From: Minisyncoccia bacterium
GTDB taxonomy: Bacteria; Patescibacteriota; Minisyncoccia; Phycocordibacterales; UBA2100
DNA: 53,957 nucleotides
NCBI GenBank assembly: GCA_965659025.1
Contig: CBFHTW010000002.1
Coordinates: 1 to 53,957 of the forward strand
Direction: 5' to 3'
In this document: positions 5,377-52,825 of the stretch, one piece after another
Position numbering within the stretch: position 1 is the stretch's first letter
Layout of the letters: every line of letters begins with the position of its first letter
Made by a program: the position numbers and the translations under genes
Notes under the pieces: generated by a model
What the model saw: the letters and a program-made list of their open reading frames with translations, nothing else
Database searches by the model: none
What the model was told of the DNA's origin: nothing

Positions 5377-7023
5377 TCACGAACGCATCGCGGCCTTCAG
5401 AAAGGCGGTGAATAACGGGTGTGGCGAAAGCGGCCGTGCCTTGAATTCTGGATGGAATTGGGTACCAAGGAAAAATGGGTGTTTACGCTTAGGCAATTCG
5501 GCAATTTCCATAAGGCGTTTGTCGGGCGAAACACCAGAAAACACCAGGCCAGCCTTCTCTATACGCTCAATGTATGCAGGATTCACCTCAAAGCGATGGC
5601 GGTGGCGCTCCGAAATCATCTCTTCGCCATAGGCGGCGCGCGCCACAGTGCCCTGCTTGAGATAGCATGGGTACGCACCAAGACGCATGGAGCCGCCGTA
5701 GTCTTTGCGGGCAAGTTTCTCTTTTTGATCGGGGAGAATGTCTATCACCGGATACAACGCCTGTGGATCTATTTCTGTGGTGTGAGCGCCAGAGAGCTTG
5801 GCCACATTGCGAGCGTATTCTACTGTCATCAACTGCATACCATAGCAGAGACCGAAATAAGGAATCTTTTTCTCACGCGCGTAACGAATGACATTAATCT
5901 TGCCCTCTATCCCCGTCTCGCCAAAACCGCCGGGCACAAGGATGCCGTCGTATGCAGAAAGACCGGAAACTGTCTTCGGGTTCTTCTCAAAATCTTTTGC
6001 GTTGAGCCAATGTATTTCTGGCCGCACCCCAAGTGCATAGGCGGAATATTTGAGCGCCTCAATCACGGAGATGTATGCGTCGGAGAGTACAAAGTCGCCT
6101 GTATCAAAATATTTGCCGATGATGGCCACTTTCACCGTGCGCCTTCCATTGTGCGCGTGTTTGGCAAAACGTTTCCACTCTGAAAGGTCTGGCTCTTTGC
6201 GCGCGCGTATCCCAAGCGCGGTGAGAAGCGTCTCCGAAAGATTGTCGCGCTCAAAGTTTAGCGGCACGTCATAGATGGAAGAAACATCAGGCGCAGAGAT
6301 TACTCGCTCGGGCCGCACATTGCATAGAAGCGCGAGTTTTTCTTTGCGCTTGTGGTCAATGGGCATATTGGCGCGCGCGATGATGATGTCGGCCTGCACG
6401 CCGGAAGAGTTGAGTGCGGCGATCGCGTGTTGGGTGGGCTTGCTCTTCATTTCGCCAAGCGTGCTCGGCACCGGAAAATACGACACCATAATGAAGAGCA
6501 CGTGTTCGGGATGCTTAAGGTGCATGACGCGCGCGGCCTCAATAAAAAGCGCGTTTTGGAAGTCGCCCACCGTGCCACCTATTTCCACCACGGAGATGTC
6601 CGACTTTGAGGCGGCCGCCGCGCGTTCAAGGCGGTTTATGATTTCATCACGTACGTGCGGAAGTGTTTCTACACATTTGCCACCGTAGCCTAAATTGCGC
6701 TCACGTTCTATCACCGCCTTGTACACCATGCCACTTGTCATGTAATCCTCTGGGATGGCGTCGCGCCCCAAGAATCGTTCATAGTTGCCCATGTCTTGGT
6801 CGGTCTCTAATCCAGAGTCAAGCACAAACGTCTCCCCGTGTTCAGTGGGGTTCATGGTGCCCGCATCCACATTGAGATATGGGTCAATTTTTACAAGGTT
6901 CACCTTTAGCCCGCGCGCGGTGAGAATCTTACCAATGGAGGCAACGGCGATACCCTTGCCGACGCCGGAGATGACGCCGCCCACGACAAAAATGTACCGG
7001 TGAGAATCGGTGCGCGCACGCAT
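5377..7023 (-). CDS. pyrG: CTP synthase
   Basis: YIFVVGGVISGVGKG N-terminus and GLCYGMQ glutamine amidotransferase motif. The start is trimmed to the Met preceding RARTDSHRYIFVVGG. Confidence 0.95.
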   Translation of the reverse strand: MRARTDSHRYIFVVGGVISGVGKGIAVASIGKILTARGLKVNLVKIDPYLNVDAGTMNPTEHGETFVLDSGLETDQDMGNYERFLGRDAIPEDYMTSGMVYKAVIERERNLGYGGKCVETLPHVRDEIINRLERAAAASKSDISVVEIGGTVGDFQNALFIEAARVMHLKHPEHVLFIMVSYFPVPSTLGEMKSKPTQHAIAALNSSGVQADIIIARANMPIDHKRKEKLALLCNVRPERVISAPDVSSIYDVPLNFERDNLSETLLTALGIRARKEPDLSEWKRFAKHAHNGRRTVKVAIIGKYFDTGDFVLSDAYISVIEALKYSAYALGVRPEIHWLNAKDFEKNPKTVSGLSAYDGILVPGGFGETGIEGKINVIRYAREKKIPYFGLCYGMQLMTVEYARNVAKLSGAHTTEIDPQALYPVIDILPDQKEKLARKDYGGSMRLGAYPCYLKQGTVARAAYGEEMISERHRHRFEVNPAYIERIEKAGLVFSGVSPDKRLMEIAELPKRKHPFFLGTQFHPEFKARPLSPHPLFTAFLKAAMRS

Positions 7024-8771: not shown

Positions 8772-9653
8772 TTACTGCGCATCCAAAGTTTTCTCGGCAT
8801 CAATAAACGATTGAATGTCTCCCGCAAGTACGTGGTCCACGTCGCGGCGCTCGTGTTCGGTGCGATGGTCTTTTACCAATTGATACGGGTGCAGTACGTA
8901 CGAGCGAATCTGACTTCCCCACTCAATCTTGGTCGCCGCGCCGGTGGAAAGGCCACGCGCCTCCGCCCGTGCCGCCTCTTCCCGCATCTGAAAGAGCTTG
9001 CCTCGCAATAATTCCAGCGCTTTTTGGCGATTGTCTGCTTGACTGCGCTCCGAGGTAACGTGTACAGCGAGGCCTGTCGGCGTGTGAGTGGCGCGCACCG
9101 CGGTGTCGCGCTTGTTTACATTTTGCCCGCCCGGGCCACCACTGCGAGCGAATGTGATTTCCAACTCACTTTCCGGAATATGTGCATCGCCCGTGTCTGG
9201 AAGTTTCGGCAACACTTCCACGAGTGAGAAGCTCGTTTGCCGCTTGCCCGCGGCATTAAACGGTGACATGCGCACAAGCCGGTGCACGCCCGCTTCACGC
9301 CGGAGCGCCCCATATGCGCCAGAGCCAAGAACTTCGCACGACACACTCCGATACCCGCCCTGGGAGTTTTCATTGGACGACATGGTGAGCACCCGCCATC
9401 CCTGCTCGGCGGCGTATCGCTGATACATTTCCAGAAGCATCCGTGAGAAATCTTCCGCGTCATCACCTCCGGCACCAGAGACAATAGAGAGAATGGCATC
9501 GCCCTTGTCGTATCCTTGCGCGCCTTGCGCCCGCATTTTGAGATCTTGATATTCTTTCAGAATTGCCTGTGCCTTGTCTTTGTCATTCCAAAAATCGGGC
9601 GCGGCCATCGCCGCTTCTATCTCTGCAATGCGTGCGGCAGTTGTGGTGTCCAT
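8772..9653 (-). CDS. prfB: peptide chain release factor 2 (short form, single frame)
   Basis: SPF stop-codon recognition motif (RMSPFNAAGKRQTSF), GGQ motif (SGGPGGQNVNK) and N-terminal PDFWND. It is 293 aa with no upstream out-of-frame exon. Confidence 0.9.
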   Translation of the reverse strand: MDTTTAARIAEIEAAMAAPDFWNDKDKAQAILKEYQDLKMRAQGAQGYDKGDAILSIVSGAGGDDAEDFSRMLLEMYQRYAAEQGWRVLTMSSNENSQGGYRSVSCEVLGSGAYGALRREAGVHRLVRMSPFNAAGKRQTSFSLVEVLPKLPDTGDAHIPESELEITFARSGGPGGQNVNKRDTAVRATHTPTGLAVHVTSERSQADNRQKALELLRGKLFQMREEAARAEARGLSTGAATKIEWGSQIRSYVLHPYQLVKDHRTEHERRDVDHVLAGDIQSFIDAEKTLDAQ

Positions 9654-9654
9654 C

Positions 9655-9729
9655 TGGAGCCGACCCGGGGATTTGAACCCCGAACCTACGGTTTACGATA
9701 CCGTTGCTCTACCGTTGAGCTAGGTCGGC
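9655..9729 (-). tRNA. tRNA-Thr (anticodon CGT), CCA encoded
   Basis: Cloverleaf: GCCGACC/GGTCGGC acceptor, ACGGT-ATCGTAA-ACCGT anticodon arm, CGGGG-TTCAAAT-CCCCG T-arm, then T-CCA. Confidence 0.9.
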
Positions 9730-9746
9730 AATGCACTGCGAATATA

Positions 9747-10214
9747 TCATACTTTTGATTTGTTGCGATATTTCCTCCTAAGTACTTTTCCTTCTTGTGC
9801 TCGCTTACTGAGTGCGCGGTGCGGCCTCCCATTACCGCGATTTAATCCCGCAAATGTTGGACTTAGTGCATCACAATTGGGACAGAGTAGGCGAAGGTTG
9901 CTTTCAATATTGTTTCGCCAATTACCATCAATATGGTCGGCCACTAATGGAACCTCCCCGGTTCTTGTATTTATCTTTGACCAGCCGCATATACAACACT
10001 TATTCCCAAATTTTTTACGCAAATATATTTTTATGGAGGTGGAGACCACGCCAATACTTTGTAAGCCAAGGATCTCCCCGTCCTGCCATTTCTTTATGTA
10101 CATTTGTCGCTGGTATTCAAGTTGGCATACGTTGCTACAATACTTGTAGTAGGAGCGATCTGGCTCCTTTCCACAACGTAAACATGGTGTGCGAGGTTTC
10201 TTCAGATGAACCAT
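9747..10214 (-). CDS. HNH endonuclease
   Basis: CxxC...CxxC zinc knuckles and ADHIDGNWRNNIESNLRLLCPNCDA (the H-N-H core). It is AT-richer than the flanking DNA. Confidence 0.8.
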   Translation of the reverse strand: MVHLKKPRTPCLRCGKEPDRSYYKYCSNVCQLEYQRQMYIKKWQDGEILGLQSIGVVSTSIKIYLRKKFGNKCCICGWSKINTRTGEVPLVADHIDGNWRNNIESNLRLLCPNCDALSPTFAGLNRGNGRPHRALSKRAQEGKVLRRKYRNKSKV

Positions 10215-10292
10215 GCAGGCATCATACCATGGTATCTATATAAAAATGGTCTGCAGTTGATTGAGACACGCACACATCGGAGCTCTTTGAAA

Positions 10293-10336
10293 CTTGAGTC
10301 TCTATTAAAACACGCTCGAACCTATGTTAGCCAGCA
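10293..10336 (+). repeat. inverted repeat A (left end of element; attL-like arm)
   Basis: cttgagtctctattaaaacacgctcgaacctatgttagccagca matches the reverse complement of 17153-17196 at 43/44 positions. Weaker similarity (ttgacttc...gcacg) continues inward for ~25 nt. Confidence 0.9.
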
Positions 10337-11192
10337 TTCTGATTGACTTCGCACGCTCCGCGTGCGTGGTGGCTTGCAACTTTTTCGTACGCCCCGCTCG
10401 CGCGGTGACTCTCCGGCGCGCGGAGTACCGCGTCGCCGGTCGCCGCCCCCACCGATGGATGGCCGGGCCACCCGTTCTTTGCCCATTCGTTTTCCCCCGC
10501 CGATTTTTCATGCATGAGGAAAAGAACGGGTGTCCGGCCTCCTGTTTTTCGTGGGGGGCGGCGCAAACCCCGAACGGCTCACTTCTTCCCATTTGAGCCG
10601 TTGGCTTTAAAGAAGTGAGCCGTTCGATGCGGAATCCTGAGCCGTTGCGAATGGCTCAGGATAGCAAGTTGATGAGCCGTTGAACGGCTCAAGAAAATGC
10701 AGAACTCAAATCCAAGTGGTGCCTTCGTTCATGCTATTTGGTGGCGTCCAGCCCATGGGGTCCATCCTCGGCATCCGCCTCGGACATTTCCGCTAGGGCT
10801 ACTCGGGCCTAGATGTCTAGGTAGCGTGCTTTTCCTCGCCAGTGCCGCCTGCGGGCGGCTGGCTCGGGCACGCAACTGTTTGGGGGGAGGAAGGAATCCT
10901 CCCCCCAGCTCCTCCTCGCCTCGCGCGTCCGCTTCGCGGCGCGCCCGGCAGAGCCGGGCAGGGCTCGGCCAACCGTCGTCGCCAACCCCCATCCTCGTTT
11001 TCAAAAGTGTGTTCGTGGCAAGATTCTTGAGTCCGTTTTGCAAACTAACGGCGGCGCTCATCCAAGGGCGTGGACGCCCTAGCGGAAATGTCCGAGGCGC
11101 GAAGCCGATGCGCTTGCCCCACACCACCCATGCGCGCGCAAACCCGCCGTCTCCAGCTTGCTTCGCGCCGGAGACGGCGGGGCTCCCCGTGG
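10337..11192. other. GC-rich, helix-dense noncoding region (candidate large structured RNA and/or origin-like region)
   Basis: ORFs here are only Arg/Pro/Gly-rich frames typical of noncoding GC-rich DNA. It holds many long perfect stems, including a 22-bp long-range pair (10778-10799 with 11076-11097), 12+6 bp (10461-10480 with 10521-10539) and 17 bp (10571-10587 with 10610-10626). Confidence 0.5.
10571..10691. repeat. iteron-like array of TGAGCCGTT
   Basis: Direct copies lie at 10594, 10616, 10638 and 10673 (spacings 22, 22 and 35 bp). Inverted copies AACGGCTCA lie at 10573 and 10683, with an imperfect one at 10650. Confidence 0.8.
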
Positions 11193-11663
11193 TCAGTACT
11201 TAAAATCCCCCGTACCTTTTCCTTTCTCCTCGTCGTTATACTCGCTCCGAAACTTCTTCCACGATTTCTCCAGCCGGAACATCTTCACGCGAGAGTCGGT
11301 ATATCTTCCGATGATGTCGTCTACAAGCCCCTGGTCGAATTTTGAGCCGTACAGGCCTTTCACATGTTCGAGGTAGACGACCATCTTGTTCGCACCAGCC
11401 ATCGCTTTTTCCAAATATCCGACGCCGAGCGCGAAGTCCGCGAATCGTAGCGAATGAGCTTCGGCGACCAGAAGCGGCACGGACATCGCACAATCCACCA
11501 GCCGCTCGGCATACGCATATTTCTGCCGCACGAGATTCGGCATCAAATCTTTCGATATCAACACGGCGCACTCAATAGTTTTTTGGTAGATTTCGAGATC
11601 GCGAAACGTGCGGACAGGTTTTTTTGGCTTAAACGAATATTGCTTCTTGTCGTAGTACGCCAT
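11193..11663 (-). CDS. four-helix-bundle protein (23S rRNA IVS protein / Avd-like family)
   Basis: The N-terminal FRDLEIYQKTIECAVLISKDL and predicted all-helical composition match the four-helix-bundle (PF05635-like) family. Confidence 0.7.
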   Translation of the reverse strand: MAYYDKKQYSFKPKKPVRTFRDLEIYQKTIECAVLISKDLMPNLVRQKYAYAERLVDCAMSVPLLVAEAHSLRFADFALGVGYLEKAMAGANKMVVYLEHVKGLYGSKFDQGLVDDIIGRYTDSRVKMFRLEKSWKKFRSEYNDEEKGKGTGDFKY

Positions 11664-11672
11664 ACAGGATAG

Positions 11673-13034
11673 TCAGACTATCGTAACTTTTTCCGCGCCC
11701 TCGCGCGGCACCACTGCCTTCGTGCCATCTTTAAAGTGCACGATGCGCTTGCGCTTCGTTTTGCCGGCTTTGTTTTTGCTCTGGAGTTTCTTAACGACAT
11801 GCAGCGGGAAGAACTGGTAGTAATCTTTCTCGTCGAACCATGCGCAGGTGAATTCAAAGAGGCGCAATCCAGTGAGGCGCGAGAGCGCGAGCGCGTACCA
11901 GGTCAGCTGCTCGATCGGCCGCTCTTTTGCGGCCTTCGGCTTGTAATCGAGGATGTGCACTTGGCCGTTCCGTATTTGCACGATGTCGATGTGGCCGGTT
12001 AAAAGCCGCGGCAATGACTCTTCTTGCTTGCCGCCCTTGAATTTTACGAGCCCGTTGTCCGTCACCTTGAAATTCAACACGTTCTCCATATGCGCTACAT
12101 CCTCGCGACGGATAAACACCGGCACCTCCGTCGCGACGGTCACGCTGTCGTTCGCGAGGAAAAAACGCTGCACCGCCTCGTGCCGCTCCTTGTTTTCCGG
12201 TACCGCCTGCAAGACAAACGCCGCGAGGCGGTTGGCGTAGTTCGTCTTCGATTTCACTATCATGTCGGCCGTGTCGAATTTCGACCGCACGTCGCTCATG
12301 CGCTCGCCGTCGGCGAAATACTGATGCGGCGTCTCGCTCGATACCGCGTCGAGATATTCCTTCACGCGCTTCAGATTACGGTTCTTGAATTCCTCCAGCA
12401 TGAGCCGCGTCTTTGCGCGGTGATAGCGAAAACGATAGAGCTGCCGGTGCGCCATAGTAACGACCTCCACCATATCCTTCGGGCGATACATTTTCGTCGC
12501 GTACGGCCGCAACCGCTCAAAGCGGCACAGCTGCTTGTGCTCCTCGATCCACGCGGACAAAGTTTCTGGTTCCGGCGCGACACCGAATTTCTTTTTCAAG
12601 ATCGCGCACGTTTCTTCCAGAGTGAGACCGAGATTGTAGTAGCTCATGCCTTCGATCACAATGCGGAGCGGAAACTGCTTGCCTTTCAGATCCTGTGCCG
12701 TGAACGTGCGGCCGCAATCGGGAAGATTTTTGCACAGGTACAGCTGTACTTGTTGGTGTTTGTTCTTCCGCACGCCGCGCTTTACGAATTTTGTCGAGTC
12801 GCAGTACGGGCAGCGTTCGGCTCCGCGTTGGCGGAAGTTATTTTCCGATTGGTCGACAGATTCTGGTCCTGGTTTTTCTTCGGGATTCGGGGATTCAGCG
12901 TAAACCGACTTTACAGCGTCGGCACTGGAGCGACTAGCCATATCACGGCCTTCCGAGGTAAAAATCTCACGAGTTTCCCGCTTTTTCGAGTTTACCCCCG
13001 CTATTCGTGATATGAACGCGAGCAGTTTTTTCAT
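11673..13034 (-). CDS. zinc-ribbon + HTH + C-terminal PD-(D/E)xK (RecB/Cas4-like) nuclease domain protein
   Basis: CPYCDSTKFVKRG...LYLCKNLPDCGRTF is an IS1-type Zn ribbon. GHIDIVQIRNGQVHILDYKPK has the D...D/E-x-K pattern, followed by QLTWYALAL (the Q-x3-Y of RecB-family nucleases). Confidence 0.6.
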   Translation of the reverse strand: MKKLLAFISRIAGVNSKKRETREIFTSEGRDMASRSSADAVKSVYAESPNPEEKPGPESVDQSENNFRQRGAERCPYCDSTKFVKRGVRKNKHQQVQLYLCKNLPDCGRTFTAQDLKGKQFPLRIVIEGMSYYNLGLTLEETCAILKKKFGVAPEPETLSAWIEEHKQLCRFERLRPYATKMYRPKDMVEVVTMAHRQLYRFRYHRAKTRLMLEEFKNRNLKRVKEYLDAVSSETPHQYFADGERMSDVRSKFDTADMIVKSKTNYANRLAAFVLQAVPENKERHEAVQRFFLANDSVTVATEVPVFIRREDVAHMENVLNFKVTDNGLVKFKGGKQEESLPRLLTGHIDIVQIRNGQVHILDYKPKAAKERPIEQLTWYALALSRLTGLRLFEFTCAWFDEKDYYQFFPLHVVKKLQSKNKAGKTKRKRIVHFKDGTKAVVPREGAEKVTIV

Positions 13035-13039
13035 GGTTT

Positions 13040-16000
13040 TTACTCCGTCGCAGGAGTTTCGGCGGACGCGGTGTTTTCGGCTGGAGGAGACTCCGGCGCA
13101 GCGTCTTGGGTCGGAATTTCTGCTTCCTCAGGCTCGGATGTTGGCGCGACCAATTCGGTTTCGGCTTCTGGTTCGGTGGGTGCGACAACTTCGGCAGGGG
13201 TCTCTTCAACACTCTCATTCTCGCCAGATTCCGCGAGCTGCTCCTCTTGCGCAGGCACAGGGCTTGGAGCCGGAGGAGGAGGCGGCGTCGAGGAAGGGCT
13301 TGCGGCGGCAGCGCCACCGAGCTGTGATTTGAGGGCAGAGACCTCGGCTTCAAGTTGTTCGATGCGTTCGTCGTGCCCCTGTAAACGCTCGAAAATAAGG
13401 GCTATTTTCTCGCCATATTCCTGCATCTTCACCCACATCTCCTGCATCGCAGAGATGATGAGTGGAATGAATTTATCGTAATCAAGCTGGAAGTACTGCA
13501 CCTCTTCGTCGCCCACGGTCTCAAGGGAAAGCGCTTCGGGAAGGATGGGCATCACTTCCTGCGCGATGAGACCGATGGAGCGCGTGGAAGAGGCGTAGCG
13601 GCCAAGCGTGGGCCAGTGCGAGAGCACTTCCGGATCGGACGCCCGCCAGTCGAAGGCGACGGGATTCAGAGCAAGCACGGCGGCAAGCGAGCTACTTGCC
13701 GACAGTGACGTGATATTGGTCTTGAGGCGTTCATCCGATTCGTTTGCGATGCACGAGGAGGCGGTGTCGTCGCTGTTGGTGTCGACGCAGACGCTTCCAC
13801 CCTTCACTTCCACTTTTCCTTCGTTGGGATTCGTCGTCCCGATGCCGACGTTGCCGCCGCTGAGAATTGTCATTCTTTCCGTGCTATTTGTTCCAAAATG
13901 AAGACCAGTGTTTTCATAATTCCAGACCCAAGCATCTTCAGTAGCCCCCAAAAGAATTTGGAACCCGTCACCGGAAGTAACGCCCGTATCTGCATTAGTT
14001 AGTTGTAGTCGAGCACCCTCATTGGAGCTAGTTTCATGGACGTGCAGTTTCCAAGCCGGGTTCGTCGTACCTATGCCGACGTTGCCGCCACCCCCTTGTA
14101 AAACTAAATTACGCCATCCGCTGGTTGCCTGAAGTGCCTGCAACCAACTATAATCACCATCGTGTACTCCAAACTCCAACTTATTATCTGAATAAATTCC
14201 AGTGCCCGTTGTGATTGCAAAAATACCCTCTGCTCCAGATCCAGTAGGAACAACACTGCTCGTGCCAGTAACCGATAACTTTTGCAATGGACTCGTCGTC
14301 CCGATGCCGACGTTGCCTAAGCTGTCGATGCGCATGCGTTCTGTTATTGTTCCAGCCGCATTACTGGTCCACAGTGCGAACGCGCCACCACTTCCGCTCC
14401 CATCTGCTTGACCTTTGATGATCCCGAAACGTGTCGTGGTAGCCGATGTGTAAAAATTGATGTTGGTAGACCCGACACCGACGAGTCCCAACGTTTGTTG
14501 GTCGTTACTGCTGACAAGTGCGGCGTTCGTTTGCCCCAGCCCATATCCGTATGTCCCCACAGAAAGGAGCGATTGCGGCGTCGTCGTCCCGATGCCGACG
14601 TTGCCACTACCTTTATTCACGACCAGCTGCCCGCTGTTCACATTCAAACCGTAATCGCTTGCAGAGTTGTAGAATTGGCTGAAATCTGAAAAACCATACG
14701 ATGTCCCCTTATAAAATCGAAGTGCACTATATGAACCTACTGCGTCTGAACTGTCAGAAATATGCATCTTCGCCAATGGCCCTGTCGTCCCGATGCCGAC
14801 GTTGCCGCTCGTCGCGATGTACAAGGAAGACGTGGCAGAAAGCGTGTCGGTGCCTGAGAAATACGGGAATTGTCCTGTCGTTCCGGTGATGGGGGCGAGG
14901 TAGTCGGTGCCGGCGACGGCTGCGGTGAGCGCGCTTGAGCCGTTGCCTTTCAGAAGACCGGTGAGCGTTGAGAATATCGGAGCGGCGGAGAACGTTTGCG
15001 CCTGGCTCCAGGTGTTCGCCGTGGTCGTGCCGAACGCGAGCGAGAGCGTGCGGTCGGCGGAGAGGTCGCCGCCGCCTTGGAGCGGATACGTGGTCGAGAT
15101 AAGCCGTGTGCTGTTCGCGGGCGTAAAACCGAGTGCCGCTTGCTTGCTGTTGAAAGTCGTCCAGTCGGCCGACGAGAGGAAGCCACTCGTGCTGCCGGAC
15201 GACTGGGCAACTTGAATCGTCGCGCCTCCGCCGAGAAGCGCATCCGTGCCGCCGGTTATGGTGAGGATGGACGAGCCTGTCTCGGTGAGAGAGCCGCGCG
15301 TGGTGGTGGAAACCGCGCCAGAGCCGTTGCCGAGCAGCACCGTGCCGCTCGCGAGATTGGCCCAGCCGGTGCCGCCGTTGCCCACGGGGAGTATGCCGGT
15401 GACGTTGGACGCGAGGTCCACAAGTGCAGTGGAGAGTACACCTGCCGTCGCTTTGAGGAACCCCGTGAGCGCGGTCGAGACGGTCGAGAGGCCTCCGAGC
15501 GTCGTGATATTCGGGAGCGAAGTCGTCGCCGAAAGCCGATTGTCGAAACGGATATTGGTCCAGTAGAGATTCGTGCTTCCTTCGTCGAGTGCGTCGGTGG
15601 TCGTCGCGTACCAATTCGTGAGAGTGAGACGTGCGTCGAGCGCCGCTTGCAAGTCGGCCTGATCGGAGAGCGTGCCGGTGATAGAGCCCCACGCGGAAGC
15701 GCCCCCTCCCCCGCCGATGCAGACGCCGTTCACCGCGAAGCAGCCGCTCGCAAGATTGAAGCCATTGGCAGCGGTCGAGGTCGCGCTGCCGGTGAGATTG
15801 AATCCTGTGGCCTGCACTCCTCCAACAAATGTGGAGGTGGAGGTGTTGGTGGAGACAAGATTGGTGACGGTGGTCGTGCCCGCCGAAAGCGTTCCGGCGC
15901 CCACGATGTTGCCCGCGCCGTCTATCGTAGTCGTCGCCGTGCCGCCGAAGTACGCGGTGCCGAAGTTGGAGAAACGAGTCGAAGATGCGCCGGCGGAAAA

Positions 16001-16879
16001 GAGTTGGAGCGCAGTCCACGTATTCGCGTCGGAGAGCGATGCGCCGCTGCCGCCCGTGATGCCGAGCGAACTGGTCGCGGTGAGCGCGTAGCCGCCTGCG
16101 CCGTCGCCGACGAGCACCTGACCGTATGCGGGCGCCGAAGTGGTGCCGGTACCCCCTTGACTGACTCCGATGGTACCGGAGAATGCCGTCGCCATGACGG
16201 AGCCGCCGGTGATGGTGGGGTTGGTAATCGTGACGTTGGAGAGATTGTCGATGCGTTGCGATTGCGCGACGGCGTTGTATACGGCGGAGGTCTGCGCACT
16301 CTGCGCCGACCCTTGCGAGAAGATAAGCGAGCGGAGTTTGTTTTCAAGACCATTCAATCGGTCGGCGAGAGCGTTTTCCGAAATACCGCCCTGCGTGACG
16401 ACGCGCTCTGTTTCCACGACACGTTCAATAACGGGCTGTTGTATTGTCTGATATACGATTGCCTGTCCCGTTTGAGGTCGTGATGGACTCTCTAATGGGG
16501 TGGTCGTCGCAATAGCGGCGAGAGGCTGGGGCGCAAGGACAGCGGGTACTTCTACGAAGCCATCTCCCGCGGCCACAGGGTACGCGTCCGTGCTATTGCC
16601 AAAAAGACGTCCGAAGAAATCGCGGAGCGTCTCCGCTGCATTCGAGAACGCGCCGCTCGCCGAAGCGACGAGTGCGGGCCGCGAGTCACTCACTGACGCC
16701 GGAGCTGCGGCGAACCCAATGGCGGTCGCGGTGAGAGGGATGGCGATAATCATCGCTGCTACCCAGGAAAGTACCCCCCTTTCACGATTCTTTTTGTGCA
16801 CCTCTGACGCGTGCCAATCTTCCGTCGCGCGGATGGCGTCACGTACCGAAAAAAGCTTACGCTCGTCGCGCGAATTCAT
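13040..16879 (-). CDS. giant membrane-anchored tail-fibre-like surface protein with C-terminal intramolecular-chaperone (peptidase S74-like) domain and Pro/Glu/Thr-rich tail
   Basis: The start is trimmed to MNSRDERK (ATG at 16879), followed by a TM helix. It has five GNVGIGTT modules. SDERLKTNI...LNPVAFDWR...GLIAQEV...LDYDKFIPL is the endosialidase-chaperone/tail-fibre signature. A coiled coil and a low-complexity PAPS/EE tail follow. Confidence 0.75.
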   Translation of the reverse strand: MNSRDERKLFSVRDAIRATEDWHASEVHKKNRERGVLSWVAAMIIAIPLTATAIGFAAAPASVSDSRPALVASASGAFSNAAETLRDFFGRLFGNSTDAYPVAAGDGFVEVPAVLAPQPLAAIATTTPLESPSRPQTGQAIVYQTIQQPVIERVVETERVVTQGGISENALADRLNGLENKLRSLIFSQGSAQSAQTSAVYNAVAQSQRIDNLSNVTITNPTITGGSVMATAFSGTIGVSQGGTGTTSAPAYGQVLVGDGAGGYALTATSSLGITGGSGASLSDANTWTALQLFSAGASSTRFSNFGTAYFGGTATTTIDGAGNIVGAGTLSAGTTTVTNLVSTNTSTSTFVGGVQATGFNLTGSATSTAANGFNLASGCFAVNGVCIGGGGGASAWGSITGTLSDQADLQAALDARLTLTNWYATTTDALDEGSTNLYWTNIRFDNRLSATTSLPNITTLGGLSTVSTALTGFLKATAGVLSTALVDLASNVTGILPVGNGGTGWANLASGTVLLGNGSGAVSTTTRGSLTETGSSILTITGGTDALLGGGATIQVAQSSGSTSGFLSSADWTTFNSKQAALGFTPANSTRLISTTYPLQGGGDLSADRTLSLAFGTTTANTWSQAQTFSAAPIFSTLTGLLKGNGSSALTAAVAGTDYLAPITGTTGQFPYFSGTDTLSATSSLYIATSGNVGIGTTGPLAKMHISDSSDAVGSYSALRFYKGTSYGFSDFSQFYNSASDYGLNVNSGQLVVNKGSGNVGIGTTTPQSLLSVGTYGYGLGQTNAALVSSNDQQTLGLVGVGSTNINFYTSATTTRFGIIKGQADGSGSGGAFALWTSNAAGTITERMRIDSLGNVGIGTTSPLQKLSVTGTSSVVPTGSGAEGIFAITTGTGIYSDNKLEFGVHDGDYSWLQALQATSGWRNLVLQGGGGNVGIGTTNPAWKLHVHETSSNEGARLQLTNADTGVTSGDGFQILLGATEDAWVWNYENTGLHFGTNSTERMTILSGGNVGIGTTNPNEGKVEVKGGSVCVDTNSDDTASSCIANESDERLKTNITSLSASSSLAAVLALNPVAFDWRASDPEVLSHWPTLGRYASSTRSIGLIAQEVMPILPEALSLETVGDEEVQYFQLDYDKFIPLIISAMQEMWVKMQEYGEKIALIFERLQGHDERIEQLEAEVSALKSQLGGAAAASPSSTPPPPPAPSPVPAQEEQLAESGENESVEETPAEVVAPTEPEAETELVAPTSEPEEAEIPTQDAAPESPPAENTASAETPATE

Positions 16880-17152
16880 TGCATATATTGTATCAGTTTT
16901 CCGTGGTCGGGAAACGCAATCTCCCAGTATTAGATGTGAACAAATTGTGGGCCAATTTAAGGCATTTGCCCCCGCCCCGCCGCCCATTCCGCACATTGCA
17001 TTCCCCCGCGAGATTGAAAATGGTGGAGAGCGGCGGGGCGGGAAGAAATACCACGAGGTCGAATCGGACCACTCCAGTACAAAGCCACCACGCGCGCGGA
17101 GCGCGCGCCTGCCCGTCCGTAGCCTCGTGCGAAGGCGGGAAGTCAAGCGTCG

Positions 17153-17196
17153 TGCTGGCTAAAATAGGTTCGAGCGTGTTTTAATAGAGACTCAAG
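17153..17196 (-). repeat. inverted repeat A' (internal copy)
   Basis: The reverse complement matches 10293-10336 at 43/44 positions. Confidence 0.9.
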
Positions 17197-18229: not shown

Positions 18230-19777
18230 ATGCGTTACTTCCTCTACGCCCGCAAAAGTACCGATGTTGAGGATAAACAAGTCCTTTCCATCGAAGCGCA
18301 ACTCGCAGAGTTGCGCGCGATCGCGCGAAAAGATGAGCTAGAGATTGTAGAAGAATTGGTCGAAAAGAAATCCGCAAAGATTCCAGGTCGCGCGATATTC
18401 AGCGACATGATGTCGCGTATTGGCCGCGGCGAGGCGCAAGGAATTATTTGCTGGAAGATAGATCGCCTCGCGCGAAATCCCGTAGACGGCGGACAAGTGC
18501 AGTGGTTGCTGCAACAGGGTGTAATCAAACACATTCAAACGCATGACCGCTCGCACTATCCGAATGACAATGTATTGATGATGTCCGTCGAGCTTGGCAT
18601 GGCGAATGAGTATATTCGCCAGTTGAGCGCAAACACGGCTCGCGGTCTGCGGCAGAAAGCGCGACAAGGAATATATCCCGGCCTCGCCCCTATCGGCTAC
18701 TTGAATGACCCGCGCACCAAAACTATCCGCGTCCACAAAAAGAACGCCGCGCTTGTGCGCGAGATGTTTGAACGCTACGCGAATGGTGCAACGTTAAATG
18801 ACTTGGCGGTATTTCTTGAGAACGCTAGCGTGCTGTCCAAAGGAAATCGCCGCGTTCACATATCGCGTATCTCATTTATTTTGCAAAATCCGTTTTATTA
18901 CGGCCACTTCCGCTACGCGGGCGAGGTTTATAAAGGTAATCACTCGCCGCTCATTTCAAAATCACTTTTTGACAAAGCAAACGCGGTGCTTCGCAGACGC
19001 GGCCGGACGCTCGCGGTCACAACCGATCCCGCGCCGCTGTGCGGCCTTTTGCGCTGCGGCTTCTGCGGCATGGGCATCACGGTCGAAGTGAAAGAGAAGC
19101 ACCAGAAAAACGGCAATATTCACCACTACACCTACTATCGCTGTACTCGCAAAAACAAGGCCGTGAAATGCAAAGAAGCGCCGATGCGAAGCGAAGTTTT
19201 AAACTCCCAACTTTCGGCGCTTCTTGGCGAGTACGCCATGCCGCAAGAATGGATATCGCCTTTATCGGCGATGCTTGATATGGAAGCAGCTAGCGCCTCC
19301 AAAACGGCGGCGGAGGCCGTTCGAGGACTGCGGGACAAAGTTTTTGATATTTCCAACAAACTTGAACGTCTTACGGATTTATATGTGGCCGAGGATATTG
19401 AACGTGAGGATTATTTGTCCCGCCGCCGCGCTCTCATTGGAGAGCGCCGGACGATTGAAGAACAAATCGTCCATCTTGAACGATCCCCCGCCGCGTGGGT
19501 TGAACCTGTCAGAAACTGGATACAAGACGCTTCGCGTCTTGATGAAATATCCAAATCAGAAGACATCCCCTCCAAAAAATCCCCCCTCCAAAAAGTTTTC
19601 GGATTGAACCTCAGAATCCACGCGCGCGAAGCGCGCGGAAATCCCATTCCCCCCTACGCGGCGCTCCGCGCCGCGCGCATTTCGGCCTCTGAAAAACCGT
19701 TAAATTTGATTCTTGAGCCGATGGCCGGAATTGAACCGGCGACCTACTCCTTACCATGGAGTTGCTCTACCATCTGA
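18230..19777 (+). CDS. large serine recombinase (resolvase domain + recombinase domain + zinc ribbon + coiled coil)
   Basis: YARKSTDVEDKQVLSIEAQ holds the catalytic Ser region, then DRLARN. CGLLRCGFCG...YYRCTRK is the zinc ribbon. The C-terminal ~70 codons run through repeat B and antisense to tRNA-Thr. Confidence 0.85.
   Translation: MRYFLYARKSTDVEDKQVLSIEAQLAELRAIARKDELEIVEELVEKKSAKIPGRAIFSDMMSRIGRGEAQGIICWKIDRLARNPVDGGQVQWLLQQGVIKHIQTHDRSHYPNDNVLMMSVELGMANEYIRQLSANTARGLRQKARQGIYPGLAPIGYLNDPRTKTIRVHKKNAALVREMFERYANGATLNDLAVFLENASVLSKGNRRVHISRISFILQNPFYYGHFRYAGEVYKGNHSPLISKSLFDKANAVLRRRGRTLAVTTDPAPLCGLLRCGFCGMGITVEVKEKHQKNGNIHHYTYYRCTRKNKAVKCKEAPMRSEVLNSQLSALLGEYAMPQEWISPLSAMLDMEAASASKTAAEAVRGLRDKVFDISNKLERLTDLYVAEDIEREDYLSRRRALIGERRTIEEQIVHLERSPAAWVEPVRNWIQDASRLDEISKSEDIPSKKSPLQKVFGLNLRIHAREARGNPIPPYAALRAARISASEKPLNLILEPMAGIEPATYSLPWSCSTI
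19565..19717 (+). repeat. repeat B (right end of element; attR-like arm abutting tRNA-Thr)
   Basis: Inverted copy of 17197-17344. It ends in gattCTTGAG, immediately followed by the tRNA acceptor stem. Confidence 0.85.
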
Positions 19778-19788
19778 GCTACATCGGC
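19716..19788 (-). tRNA. tRNA-Thr (anticodon GGT), CCA not encoded
   Basis: GCCGATG/CATCGGC acceptor, ACTCC-ATGGTAA-GGAGT anticodon arm, GCCGG-TTCAATT-CCGGC T-arm and discriminator T. The 3' trailer is CAAG. Confidence 0.9.
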
Positions 19789-52447: not shown

Positions 52448-52818
52448 GGGGATGATTTGAATCGACAGGGGCATAGAGGTGTGAATGTGCATCGCGAACG
52501 TGAGCGACGTTCTCAAAAACGCTCAACACTCAAATGCGAATAAAACCGCACGGGGAATTCTTTCCCCGATCCAGCCCGCTTACGCTTTCGCCTAAGCGGC
52601 CGTTCATCCGTCTGACATCCGATACGGCGGCGTGAACGTCATTCTTTCGGGTTCGGATGCAGGGGCGTCTCGTCCTGCATCTTAAACACTTGGGAATCGA
52701 CATCGTGCGATTTTGCGTACCTTTCTACGCATGATGTCTAAACTCTAGGGTACGCTAGGCGACGTAGTATCGTTCACATGTCTTCTTCTGGACGGGAGTT
52801 CGTTGCTCCCCATCTCCA
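52448..52818 (+). ncRNA. ssrA: tmRNA (SsrA)
   Basis: The 5' end GGGGATGATTTGAATCGACAGGGG and the 3' end GGACGGGAGTTCGTTGCTCCCCATCTCCA form a tRNA-Ala-like acceptor (GGGGATG/CATCTCC) with G3:U70. The candidate tag frame GCA...GCC TAA (52548-52595) reads ARGILSPIQPAYAFA*, with the stop inside a hairpin. Confidence 0.85.
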
Positions 52819-52825
52819 CACACAT

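Follow-up and report, generated by a model that had tools for sequence, protein, structure and literature searches.

The DNA under study, hereafter the window, comprises 53,957 nt of contig CBFHTW010000002.1 (assembly GCA_965659025.1, Minisyncoccia bacterium) and represents bacterial chromosome of the type found in Patescibacteria, a group that also goes by the name Candidate Phyla Radiation (CPR). The closest relatives of the flanking proteins all belong to Patescibacteria metagenome-assembled genomes (MAGs), and a standard tmRNA gene (52448-52821, plus strand, 91 bits) together with eight tRNA genes, including two for tRNA-Met and two for tRNA-Thr, confirms that the chromosome is cellular. 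On the minus strand to the left of the element of interest lie the genes for CTP synthase, FtsX, FtsE and release factor 2 (RF2); closer to it are tRNA-Thr(cgt) (9655-9729, 560 nt upstream of the element) and a gene for a 155-aa HNH endonuclease (9747-10214, minus strand), after whose end at 10214 a gap of about 980 nt opens before the next gene, which encodes a protein of 156 aa (11193-11663, minus strand). The same strand carries a gene for a 453-aa protein with a Zn-ribbon and a PD-(D/E)XK nuclease domain (11673-13034) and a 1368-aa tail-fibre-like gene, past which a DUF3800 gene, a large serine recombinase gene (18230-19777, plus strand) and tRNA-Thr(ggt) (19715-19788, minus strand) are found. 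The gap itself holds a noncoding unit (10293-11192) which, in our view and with slightly better than even prospects, represents an uncatalogued class of large, structured noncoding RNAs in Patescibacteria, one that is carried by, or anchors, integrative islands.

A first-pass annotation, made from the letters alone, had pointed to a noncoding and stem-dense region at this place, and both properties were borne out, although the start had been set too late and the unit begins further upstream, at about 10293. The minimum free energy (MFE) of the plus strand is -450.1 kcal/mol compared to -355.9 +/- 7.3 in dinucleotide shuffles (z -12.8), and the minus strand reaches a z of -12.0. Perfect inverted repeats (10 bp or longer) account for 82 nt of the 500-nt bin at 10500, more than in any other bin of the 54-kb window, the runner-up having 32 nt. 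The GC excess that had been seen by eye is only moderate within the window (0.608 for 10501-11000 versus ~0.53 overall, with higher bins at 15-16 kb), but it is consistent over the homologues, in which the core of the element is the more GC-rich part in 50 of 50 loci, averaging 56% as opposed to 40% in its flanks. The 168-aa (plus strand) and 132-aa (minus strand) open reading frames (ORFs) in the gap matched neither Pfam nor PHROG and their frames are broken by indels in homologues, so that a protein-coding reading was rejected; the tblastn matches are split among the frames, which likewise argues that the element is noncoding.

The region of ~850 nt is a composite of three modules and not one fold, namely a structured leader (U), an array of 9-mer hairpins and a core (M), a caveat that applies to its description as one large structured RNA; the element as a whole measures ~450-880 nt. 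Every stem that had been listed from the letters is present. The 17-bp stem (10571-10587 with 10610-10626) is 100% complementary, both gagccgtt hairpins exist (10634-10646 with 10650-10662 and 10664-10681 with 10683-10700, the GAGCCGTT hairpins), and CGCGGT/ACCGCG and CTCCG/CGGAG can be read directly at 10400-10431. Adjustments concern the long-range pairing, which is real and measures 24 instead of 22 bp (10776-10799 with 11076-11099, 100% complementary), the G/C hairpin, which has 11 instead of 10 bp (10881-10891 with 10897-10907), the stem at 11145-11179, refined to 11143-11157 with 11167-11181 (93%), and the ggccgg/ccggcc helix, refined to 10466-10483 with 10518-10535 (89% complementary) and nested within a pairing of 10441-10455 with 10549-10563. 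A TTGACT that had been assigned to arm A sits instead at 10343-10348, in a box upstream.

Module M (10745-11192; plus-strand coordinates are used for all parts of M and U) runs from its closing helix to the end of its terminal region. In alignment A2, which comprises 51 oriented M copies, the conserved 5' flank of M (10718-10744) appears as a degenerate direct copy of arm A that also resembles a -10 box; on the opposite strand, the same segment carries in one subfamily, not in the window copy, a match to the sigma-70 consensus (TTTAGA-17-TAGAAT). According to the MFE fold, the 5' strand of the closing helix, CCAUGGGG (10753-10760), pairs with CCCCGUGG (11185-11192), and in homologues (A/C)GGAG or AGGGG on the 5' side and CUCCC(U) on the 3' side are conserved, the conserved GCUCCCU pairing with the (A/C)GGAG upstream of arm A and thus shutting the module. 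Inside, arm A (10776-10799) and arm B (11076-11099) form the 24-bp stem, and this is followed in 5' to 3' order of their first strands by hairpin H1 (10824-10875; GCGUGC..GCACGC enclosing CCAGUGCCGC/GCGGCUGG), the G-rich hairpin GGGGGGAGGA / UCCUCCCCCC (10881-10907), a pyrimidine tract CCCCCAUCCUC (10986-10996), a hairpin with a conserved C-rich loop (11110-11139; UUGaCCCACCCuCCCGUUC in the family and UUGCCCCACACCACCCAUGC here) and the terminal hairpin (11143-11181).

This fold is conserved and its structure is under selection. RNAalifold predicted 56 pairs on A2, 17 of which show compensatory changes on both sides; the share of paired cells is 95.9% compared to 89.7% after shuffling (reached by 0 of 500 shuffles), and the covariation score amounts to 0.174 versus 0.075 for shuffled alignments and 0.03-0.06 with slid partners. 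Among the homologues from more than 100 Patescibacteria contigs, base changes that compensate one another are found in the internal and terminal hairpins as well as in the long stem. They are strongest in H1 (GC29/CG11, CG26/UA12/GC6 and CG20/GC11/UA6/AU6), concern two pairs of the G-rich hairpin (GC40/AU9 and AU27/GC20) and, over 48 loci, the stem below the C-rich loop (GCGC/GCGC, CACAC/GUGUG, GUGC/GCAC), and the terminal hairpin is kept by many differing sequences (CCCCGCCGU/ACGGCGGGG, CCCGCUCGC/GCGAGCGGG, UUAAAUUUUG/CAAAAUUUA and others). While the 24-bp stem is invariant in loci that had been selected by their arms, a search with a pattern outside the arms yielded 16 new Patescibacteria copies with compensatory double changes at at least four arm positions (A-U to G-C, G-C to A-U and C-G to U-A). 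As these loci were not selected on the arms, the pairing itself must be under selection.

The G-rich hairpin shows a second kind of covariation. Its purine strand (10882-10894) and the pyrimidine tract (10986-10996), which lies ~90-190 nt downstream in A2, vary as mirror images: the rule G<->C, A<->U/A holds for 87% of the cells in register and for 50-63% in slid registers, and none of 1000 permutations among sequences reached the value in register. Judged from these sequence patterns, this suggests a major-groove triplex of ~10 triples, for which such mirror covariation is the expected signature, with the G-rich hairpin as the proposed duplex and the tract as the proposed third strand. A helix and a distal strand that covary in triple register are also known from ENE-type and other major-groove triplexes (the ENEs of MALAT1 and PAN, telomerase RNA, preQ1-II). 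The candidate triplex differs from them in that it is proposed from covariation only, would comprise ~10 consecutive positions of a G/C-rich tract, and would need C+*G-C triples on the plus strand or a purine-motif triplex on the minus strand.

Homologues of the element are confined to Patescibacteria. Among species-representative genomes, 95 stretches contain the exact 22-mer of arm A, and almost all of these come from several classes of this phylum (families of Paceibacteria, and MAGs labelled Saccharibacteria, Doudna-, Roizman-, Uhr-, Buchanan- and Gracilibacteria), and about half of these stretches have an inverted partner 230-360 nt away. By BLAST, M (10745-11150) aligns at 70-94% identity with more than 100 Patescibacteria MAG contigs, where it is 328-510 nt long, while the housekeeping proteins of the genomes that carry it are only ~55-70% identical. 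IMG/VR (searched with exact or degenerate arms), the INPHARED phages and the 72,556 plasmids of PLSDB contain no match to M, and an origin from a phage or plasmid was rejected accordingly. The Rfam scan that had been proposed was run as well: at gathering thresholds, Rfam 15, which covers GOLLD, ROOL, HEARO, OLE, raiA, group I and II introns, RNase P, tmRNA, 6S, SRP and the DUF3800 motifs, returned just the eight tRNAs and the tmRNA for the window, all elsewhere, and for positions 9600-11800 at E values up to 10 only chance-level matches far under the thresholds. Eighteen homologous loci gave tRNAs only, six loci searched at E values up to 1 gave nothing on M or U, and a full-text literature search found no description of such an RNA. 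The early likening to large structured RNAs of the GOLLD, ROOL or HEARO kind that match no known family is hence supported, both by the lack of any Rfam 15 family on the element and by the covariation among its homologues.

Upstream of M lies a promoter-like or 5'-leader box (CTTGAGTCTCTATTAAAACACGCTCGAACCTATGTTAGCCAGCA ... TTGACTTC; 10293-10350), followed by domain U (10351-10566). The fold of 10315-10570 has a z of -5.8. Domain U is made up of the small hairpin GCACGC-UCC-GCGUGC with GUGGUGGCU behind it (10351-10372), of a stem (10400-10431) and of a long GC hairpin (10441-10563). In ~25 Patescibacteria loci the box (..CGAACCTATTTT.. then GACTAATC) precedes this conserved small hairpin, which covaries between GCACGC/GCGUGC and GCGCGC/GCGCGC (L078, L081, L130 and the second copy in the window), while the place of the long hairpin is taken in other loci by a long hairpin of differing sequence; in BLAST searches, the block 10314-10413 recurs ~200-450 nt upstream of M in ~20 loci. 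The second copy is inverted (16880-17196, minus strand) and fronts the operon of the 1368-aa gene. Positions 10293-10350 correspond to 17196-17139 with 97.7% identity over 44 nt, and the same box is followed here by GCGCGC-UCC-GCGCGC, GUGGUGGCU and a long GC hairpin (16971-16983 with 17030-17042). From this copy it follows that U behaves like a modular promoter or leader in sense orientation, as is also seen before the protein operon of L101; within the window it would drive either M or a protein operon, with the two units converging. The first ~89 codons of the 1368-aa ORF, if counted from the TTG at 17146, overlap this leader copy, and the true start is probably an ATG near 16880 (MNSRDERKLF...); an attempt to place the start by homology was uninformative.

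On its other side, M borders a slot for unrelated genes. The nearest downstream ORF of at least 100 aa converges on M in 58 of 69 loci, and its stop codon lies within ~10 nt of the predicted 3' end of M in 34 of these 58 and at 12-988 nt in the other 24; in the window, the stop codon of the 156-aa gene directly abuts M, and the conserved CTCCC-T(A/G)A, taken from the opposite strand, gives a stop codon. Sixty-six such neighbour proteins fall into 52 clusters, or unrelated families; among the cargo that could be identified are type I restriction-modification systems, methylases, a Schlafen-type helicase/S24 peptidase, DUF3800 proteins, group-II-like or UG17-like RVT_1 reverse transcriptases (RTs), large surface proteins, a P-type ATPase and an ECF sigma module. 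Restriction-modification systems, RTs and serine integrases are often encountered beside M. The 205-aa protein beside one M subfamily has no similarity to the 156-aa protein of the window, and a shared protein partner was therefore rejected. The 5' side of U and M is syntenic in subsets of the loci (the window and L116 share RF2-FtsE-FtsX, and L026, L057 and L089 have three genes in common). In the window, as in six other loci, a large serine recombinase is encoded at most 8 kb away from M, and the one in the window, which has Resolvase, Recombinase and Zn_ribbon_recom domains and CcrB- and XisF-like matches, is possibly the integrase of an island that holds M and the cargo. The 3' end of this recombinase ORF overlaps tRNA-Thr(ggt) by ~60 nt, and the two tRNA-Thr genes bracket ~10 kb with the HNH gene, the U-M RNA, the cargo operon, the DUF3800 gene and the integrase.

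Under the reading of the element as an RNA gene, a plus-strand transcript would start from the promoter-like box near 10315 and traverse the leader U, the lineage-specific GAGCCGUU hairpins and the ~450-nt core M, in which terminal helix closure, the 24-bp stem core, covarying hairpins, the C-rich loop and a probable helix of ~10 triples would be combined. Its product may act as a folded RNA or as the scaffold of a ribonucleoprotein, in the manner of GOLLD, ROOL or OLE. The RNA gene would belong to or anchor the integrative island, its 3' end forming the fixed border of a slot that holds unrelated cargo (defence, surface proteins, RTs) transcribed towards the RNA, and the cargo in the window would be transcribed from the second copy of the same box and leader.

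Several observations weigh against this proposal. Many M copies lack a recognisable box within 700 nt upstream, M is patchily distributed, each genome that carries it having 1-3 copies, and its sequences are not phylogenetically independent, so that the shuffle statistics overstate the significance. Pairs of the 24-bp stem are nearly all of the Watson-Crick type (98.8% paired, with 2 G-U cells in ~1000), which also fits a constraint at the DNA level or one specific to double-stranded RNA. With regard to the strand, 35 of 54 modules have the lower MFE on the minus strand, RNAalifold yields -208.1 (GU 263, AC 71) for minus and -197.9 (GU 190, AC 144) for plus, the 3' hairpins fold better on minus in 36 of 50 cases, and terminator scans found no intrinsic terminator after M on plus.

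These energies and GU/AC ratios, which slightly favour minus, bring up the explanation that survives best among the alternatives and that we nonetheless consider rather unlikely, namely that the minus strand is the functional one and M a structured 3'-untranslated region (3'-UTR) or a processed 3'-derived RNA whose role would be that of a terminator, of a stabiliser or of an RNA that partners with the cargo, for instance with the RTs. Such a role would agree with the neighbour genes, 84% of which are on the minus strand and most of which end within ~10 nt of the M border, with the RT genes in L062 and L082, which would have M next on the same strand, and with a U-run that follows the terminal hairpin on minus in a subset of loci (..GCGAGCGGGG UUUUGCGC) and makes it look like the terminator of the converging gene. 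Were M a minus-strand RNA, the mirror covariation would also accord with a triplex of the pH-independent purine-motif kind (G*G-C, A*A-U, U*A-U), even in the variants with A or U opposite A-U. A terminator right behind the stop codon would, on the other hand, block co-transcription of the remaining M, and a common 3'-UTR role is hard to rationalise for cargo that is unrelated between loci. Box and U constitute a sense leader before protein operons and point into M on the plus strand, and the U-G pairs of H1 (UG24/CG23, UG29/UA11) and of the closing helix would become C-A mismatches on minus. The evidence bearing on the weak hint at a plus-strand RNA that had been drawn from a single G-U pair points both ways: the folding energies and G-U counts are equivocal or lean slightly towards minus, the orientation of promoter and leader favours plus, and scans for consensus promoters and terminators were uninformative or contradictory. 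It may also be that the two convergent boxes transcribe both strands across M.

Another, again unlikely, explanation places the function in the DNA itself. The region could be a platform or attachment region of a large serine recombinase, at which cargo is inserted at ...CTCCC|T or a segment bracketed by the boxes is inverted, and the stems would then be recombinase-binding sites or structures formed by cruciform or single-stranded DNA. In favour of such a site are the precise border at which conserved sequence gives way to hypervariable cargo and the almost pure Watson-Crick pairing of the long stem. The boxes face inward and bracket a 6.9-kb unit of RNA and cargo operon (10293-17196) beside the recombinase gene; the same bracket exists in L101 and L102. 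Across genomes the bracketed unit is found in both orientations, as judged from the ftsI-murE flank in L069 versus L102 and relative to the integrase in L030 and L068 versus the window and L101, a hint of inversion, be it active or spread over evolutionary time. A serine recombinase gene adjoins the box in 4 of 4 informative loci and is divergent from a box in L030, L068 and L101. In L078 (Kaiserbacteria, MFKV01000006.1), finally, an insertion of 1181 nt (5688-6869) sits exactly inside arm A and encodes a 316-aa protein that was judged, by its motifs alone, to be an IS110-family-like transposase; if so, this element would use the conserved stem of the RNA gene as a specific target. Against a purely DNA-level function speak the constant loops on covarying stems, the mirror covariation and the terminal closing helix, all of which are features of a single-strand fold and not of recombinase sites. 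Sites of serine recombinases measure ~40-50 bp and not 450 bp, and most loci are without a recombinase within 8 kb. The interior of M was never found inverted between the 24-bp arms in the ~44-48 modules with readable flanks, which argues against an invertible DNA switch and led us to reject an inverton between the arms. As a separate observation, isolated 3' fragments of M (arm B and the 3' hairpins) occur in L029, L034, L045 and L053, in L034 and L053 away from contig ends, and could be recombination remnants or att-like duplications.

One could speculate further, although we give this idea little credence, that M, the inward-facing pair of boxes and leaders and the serine recombinase together form a gene-capture platform specific to Patescibacteria, with unrelated genes entering at ...CTCCC|T, the fixed 3' junction of the RNA, and an RNA that contains a long triplex. 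Cargo could then be expressed from the duplicated promoter-leader towards the RNA, which would serve as an insulator, terminator, regulatory or recombination cofactor. A known system for comparison is the integron platform (intI, Pc, attI, attC), where a recombinase gene beside a fixed promoter platform is likewise followed by unrelated, promoterless-looking genes, and gene stop codons abut a structured element. The present recombinase is, however, a serine enzyme and not a tyrosine recombinase like IntI, and the 450-nt element occurs once per slot, whereas an attC of 60-140 nt follows each cassette; the likeness is one of gene arrangement. If the idea holds, it would represent an RNA-anchored functional analogue of the integron in the most genome-reduced bacteria.

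That M is a functionless, selfish nonautonomous repeat of the kind of miniature inverted-repeat transposable elements (MITEs), REP or Correia elements, whose terminal inverted repeats would be the 24-bp arms, appears very improbable. The inverted repeats do enclose 230-360 bp, the element is often found at contig ends, is highly similar across classes and is targeted by the IS110-like element, and some MAGs contain 2-3 copies (CAINLW01, MEWV01, JANLHG01, CALRAL01). The copy number of 1-3 per assembly is, however, far from the tens expected of such repeats, no target-site duplications were seen at the loci, and the 5' flank is syntenic in related genomes. Conservation also continues past both arms, for ~30 nt on the left side and ~95 nt on the right, into flanks that are themselves structured and covarying, and the internal compensatory changes show selection for pairing.

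Between U and M, seven copies of the 9-mers GAGCCGTT/AACGGCTC (TGAGCCGTT/AACGGCTCA) are spaced at ~22 nt (10571-10700) and form 3-4 hairpins; TGAGCCGTT or its complement is present in seven copies between 10573 and 10691, with just two more in the rest of the window. This GAGCCGUU hairpin array is lineage-specific and shared by few loci (L078, L032, L051, L104, L116), and in another subfamily M itself contains this hairpin as an exchangeable module, in that a GAACGGCUCA...UGAGCCGUUC hairpin replaces an internal hairpin (L030, L050, L051, L083-85, L093, L094, L105, L116) and has a compensatory variant in L111. The idea that the array and the GC-rich, palindrome-rich surroundings mark the iteron-type replication origin, or else the partition site, of some plasmid-like element that has integrated, to which the early mention of an origin region had pointed, can hardly be upheld, since the neighbourhood has no Rep or other initiator gene, Par or DnaA-box signature and no AT-rich unwinding element, none of the 72,556 plasmids matches, and the array is absent from most homologues, the recurring motif being one hairpin inside M.

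Further candidates were rejected. TIGR arrays consist of ~36-nt tandem units with box C/D-like motifs and dual spacers beside a Tas protein with a Nop domain (PMC12045711); the 9-mers here are spaced at ~22 nt without spacer-like variable pairs, and the neighbouring HNH protein has no Nop domain match. The similarity of GAGCCGU/ACGGCUC to domain V of group II introns is superficial, as strand order and length are wrong, and neither the Intron_gpII nor the group-II-D1D4 model matched; group-II-like RTs near M in L059, L062, L082 and L088 lie outside M and convergent with it. A degenerate RT or the template of a diversity-generating retroelement (DGR) was dismissed since 21 related loci with the 453-aa/156-aa gene pair have various unrelated genes, and no similarity to the gap, downstream of the pair. 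Among the ORFs examined within ~10 kb of the window element no RT was found, and a comparison of 10215-11192 with the window (blastn-short, word size 9) returned only the promoter box repeat and nothing in the 1368-aa gene. For bacterial RNase P RNA, neither the P4 strands (GGAAAGUCCGG / ACAGAAnnCGGCUUA) nor the model matched in M. Two weak adjacent RNaseP_bact_a matches in L056 (3850-4157, plus strand; 22 and 20 bits, E 0.003 and 0.015, at a gathering score of 100) lie 1.7 kb from the M copy of that locus, so that M and this signal are separate and M is not the RNase P RNA; they suggest a divergent RNase P RNA of CPR bacteria that is missed by standard thresholds.

Some of the neighbouring proteins deserve comment in their own right. 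The 155-aa HNH protein is of the free-standing homing type, is encoded just upstream of the promoter box and has a counterpart of 67% identity in L077 (6737-7171); it is possibly a homing endonuclease associated with the RNA locus. An HNH gene next to a structured RNA is reminiscent of HEARO, the omega-RNA of IscB, but the gene is transcribed divergently, its product has only 155 aa and does not show a RuvC or IscB architecture, the HEARO model gave no match, and such adjacency was seen in only 2 of ~110 loci. The 156-aa protein has a weak 23S_rRNA_IVP/Avd-like match (E 0.003, below the cutoff). In the 453-aa protein, an IS1/IS1595-type zinc ribbon is combined with a Cas4-like PD-(D/E)XK nuclease domain (loci L001-L021); its homologues share 62-81% identity across many Patescibacteria classes and 37-48% in Elusimicrobiota and DPANN archaea (Woesearchaeota, Aenigmatarchaeota). 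Its gene, often found on short contigs, is always preceded by that of a very large, repeat-rich surface protein and always followed by that of a four-helix protein of ~155-180 aa, and the trio looks like a horizontally spread three-gene module. Segments of 26-34 nt that encode GNVGIGTT, of which the 1368-aa gene contains many repeats (13800-14810, minus strand), match the genes of large surface proteins in distant Patescibacteria (L008, L014) at 93-100% identity.

The element favoured here, a large structured RNA at the border of an island, resembles GOLLD, ROOL and OLE as an ornate RNA and the genes for tRNA and tmRNA as an island border, by analogy and not by membership. With GOLLD and ROOL it shares a length of several hundred nt, many conserved helices, a GC content above that of the host, the lack of a known biochemical function and a position in mobile or variable regions near tRNA genes, here tRNA-Thr. 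It differs from them in that neither Rfam model matches and in that it is found in Patescibacteria only and not in viral contigs or phage genomes; to our knowledge, neither an architecture in which cargo abuts the RNA nor a duplicated promoter and leader has been described for GOLLD or ROOL. Island hotspots at tRNA and tmRNA genes likewise have a structured RNA gene whose 3' end borders hypervariable, defence-rich cargo, with integrases nearby. The enzymes here are large serine recombinases instead of the usual tyrosine integrases and are located at the far side of the cargo or beside the promoter box, the RNA is patchy and may travel with the island, and no direct repeat of the 3' end of M was detected at the other end of the island in the window; serine integrases do not require such a distal repeat.

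Large ornate bacterial RNAs are rare (ribosomal RNA, RNase P, tmRNA, group I and II introns, OLE, GOLLD, ROOL, raiA), and each new class of large RNA has pointed to new biochemistry. The present family is defined by its arms, conserved loops and more than 100 loci well enough for a covariance model and for constructs for probing or cryo-EM, and the possible triple helix in M would be an unusually long one. Patescibacteria are a huge and mostly uncultured group, in whose tiny genomes ~0.5-0.9 kb of noncoding sequence comes at a high price. As the element marks a precise border of hypervariable, defence-rich cargo, it becomes directly testable both what the putative new RNA does and how CPR genomes gain and swap accessory genes.

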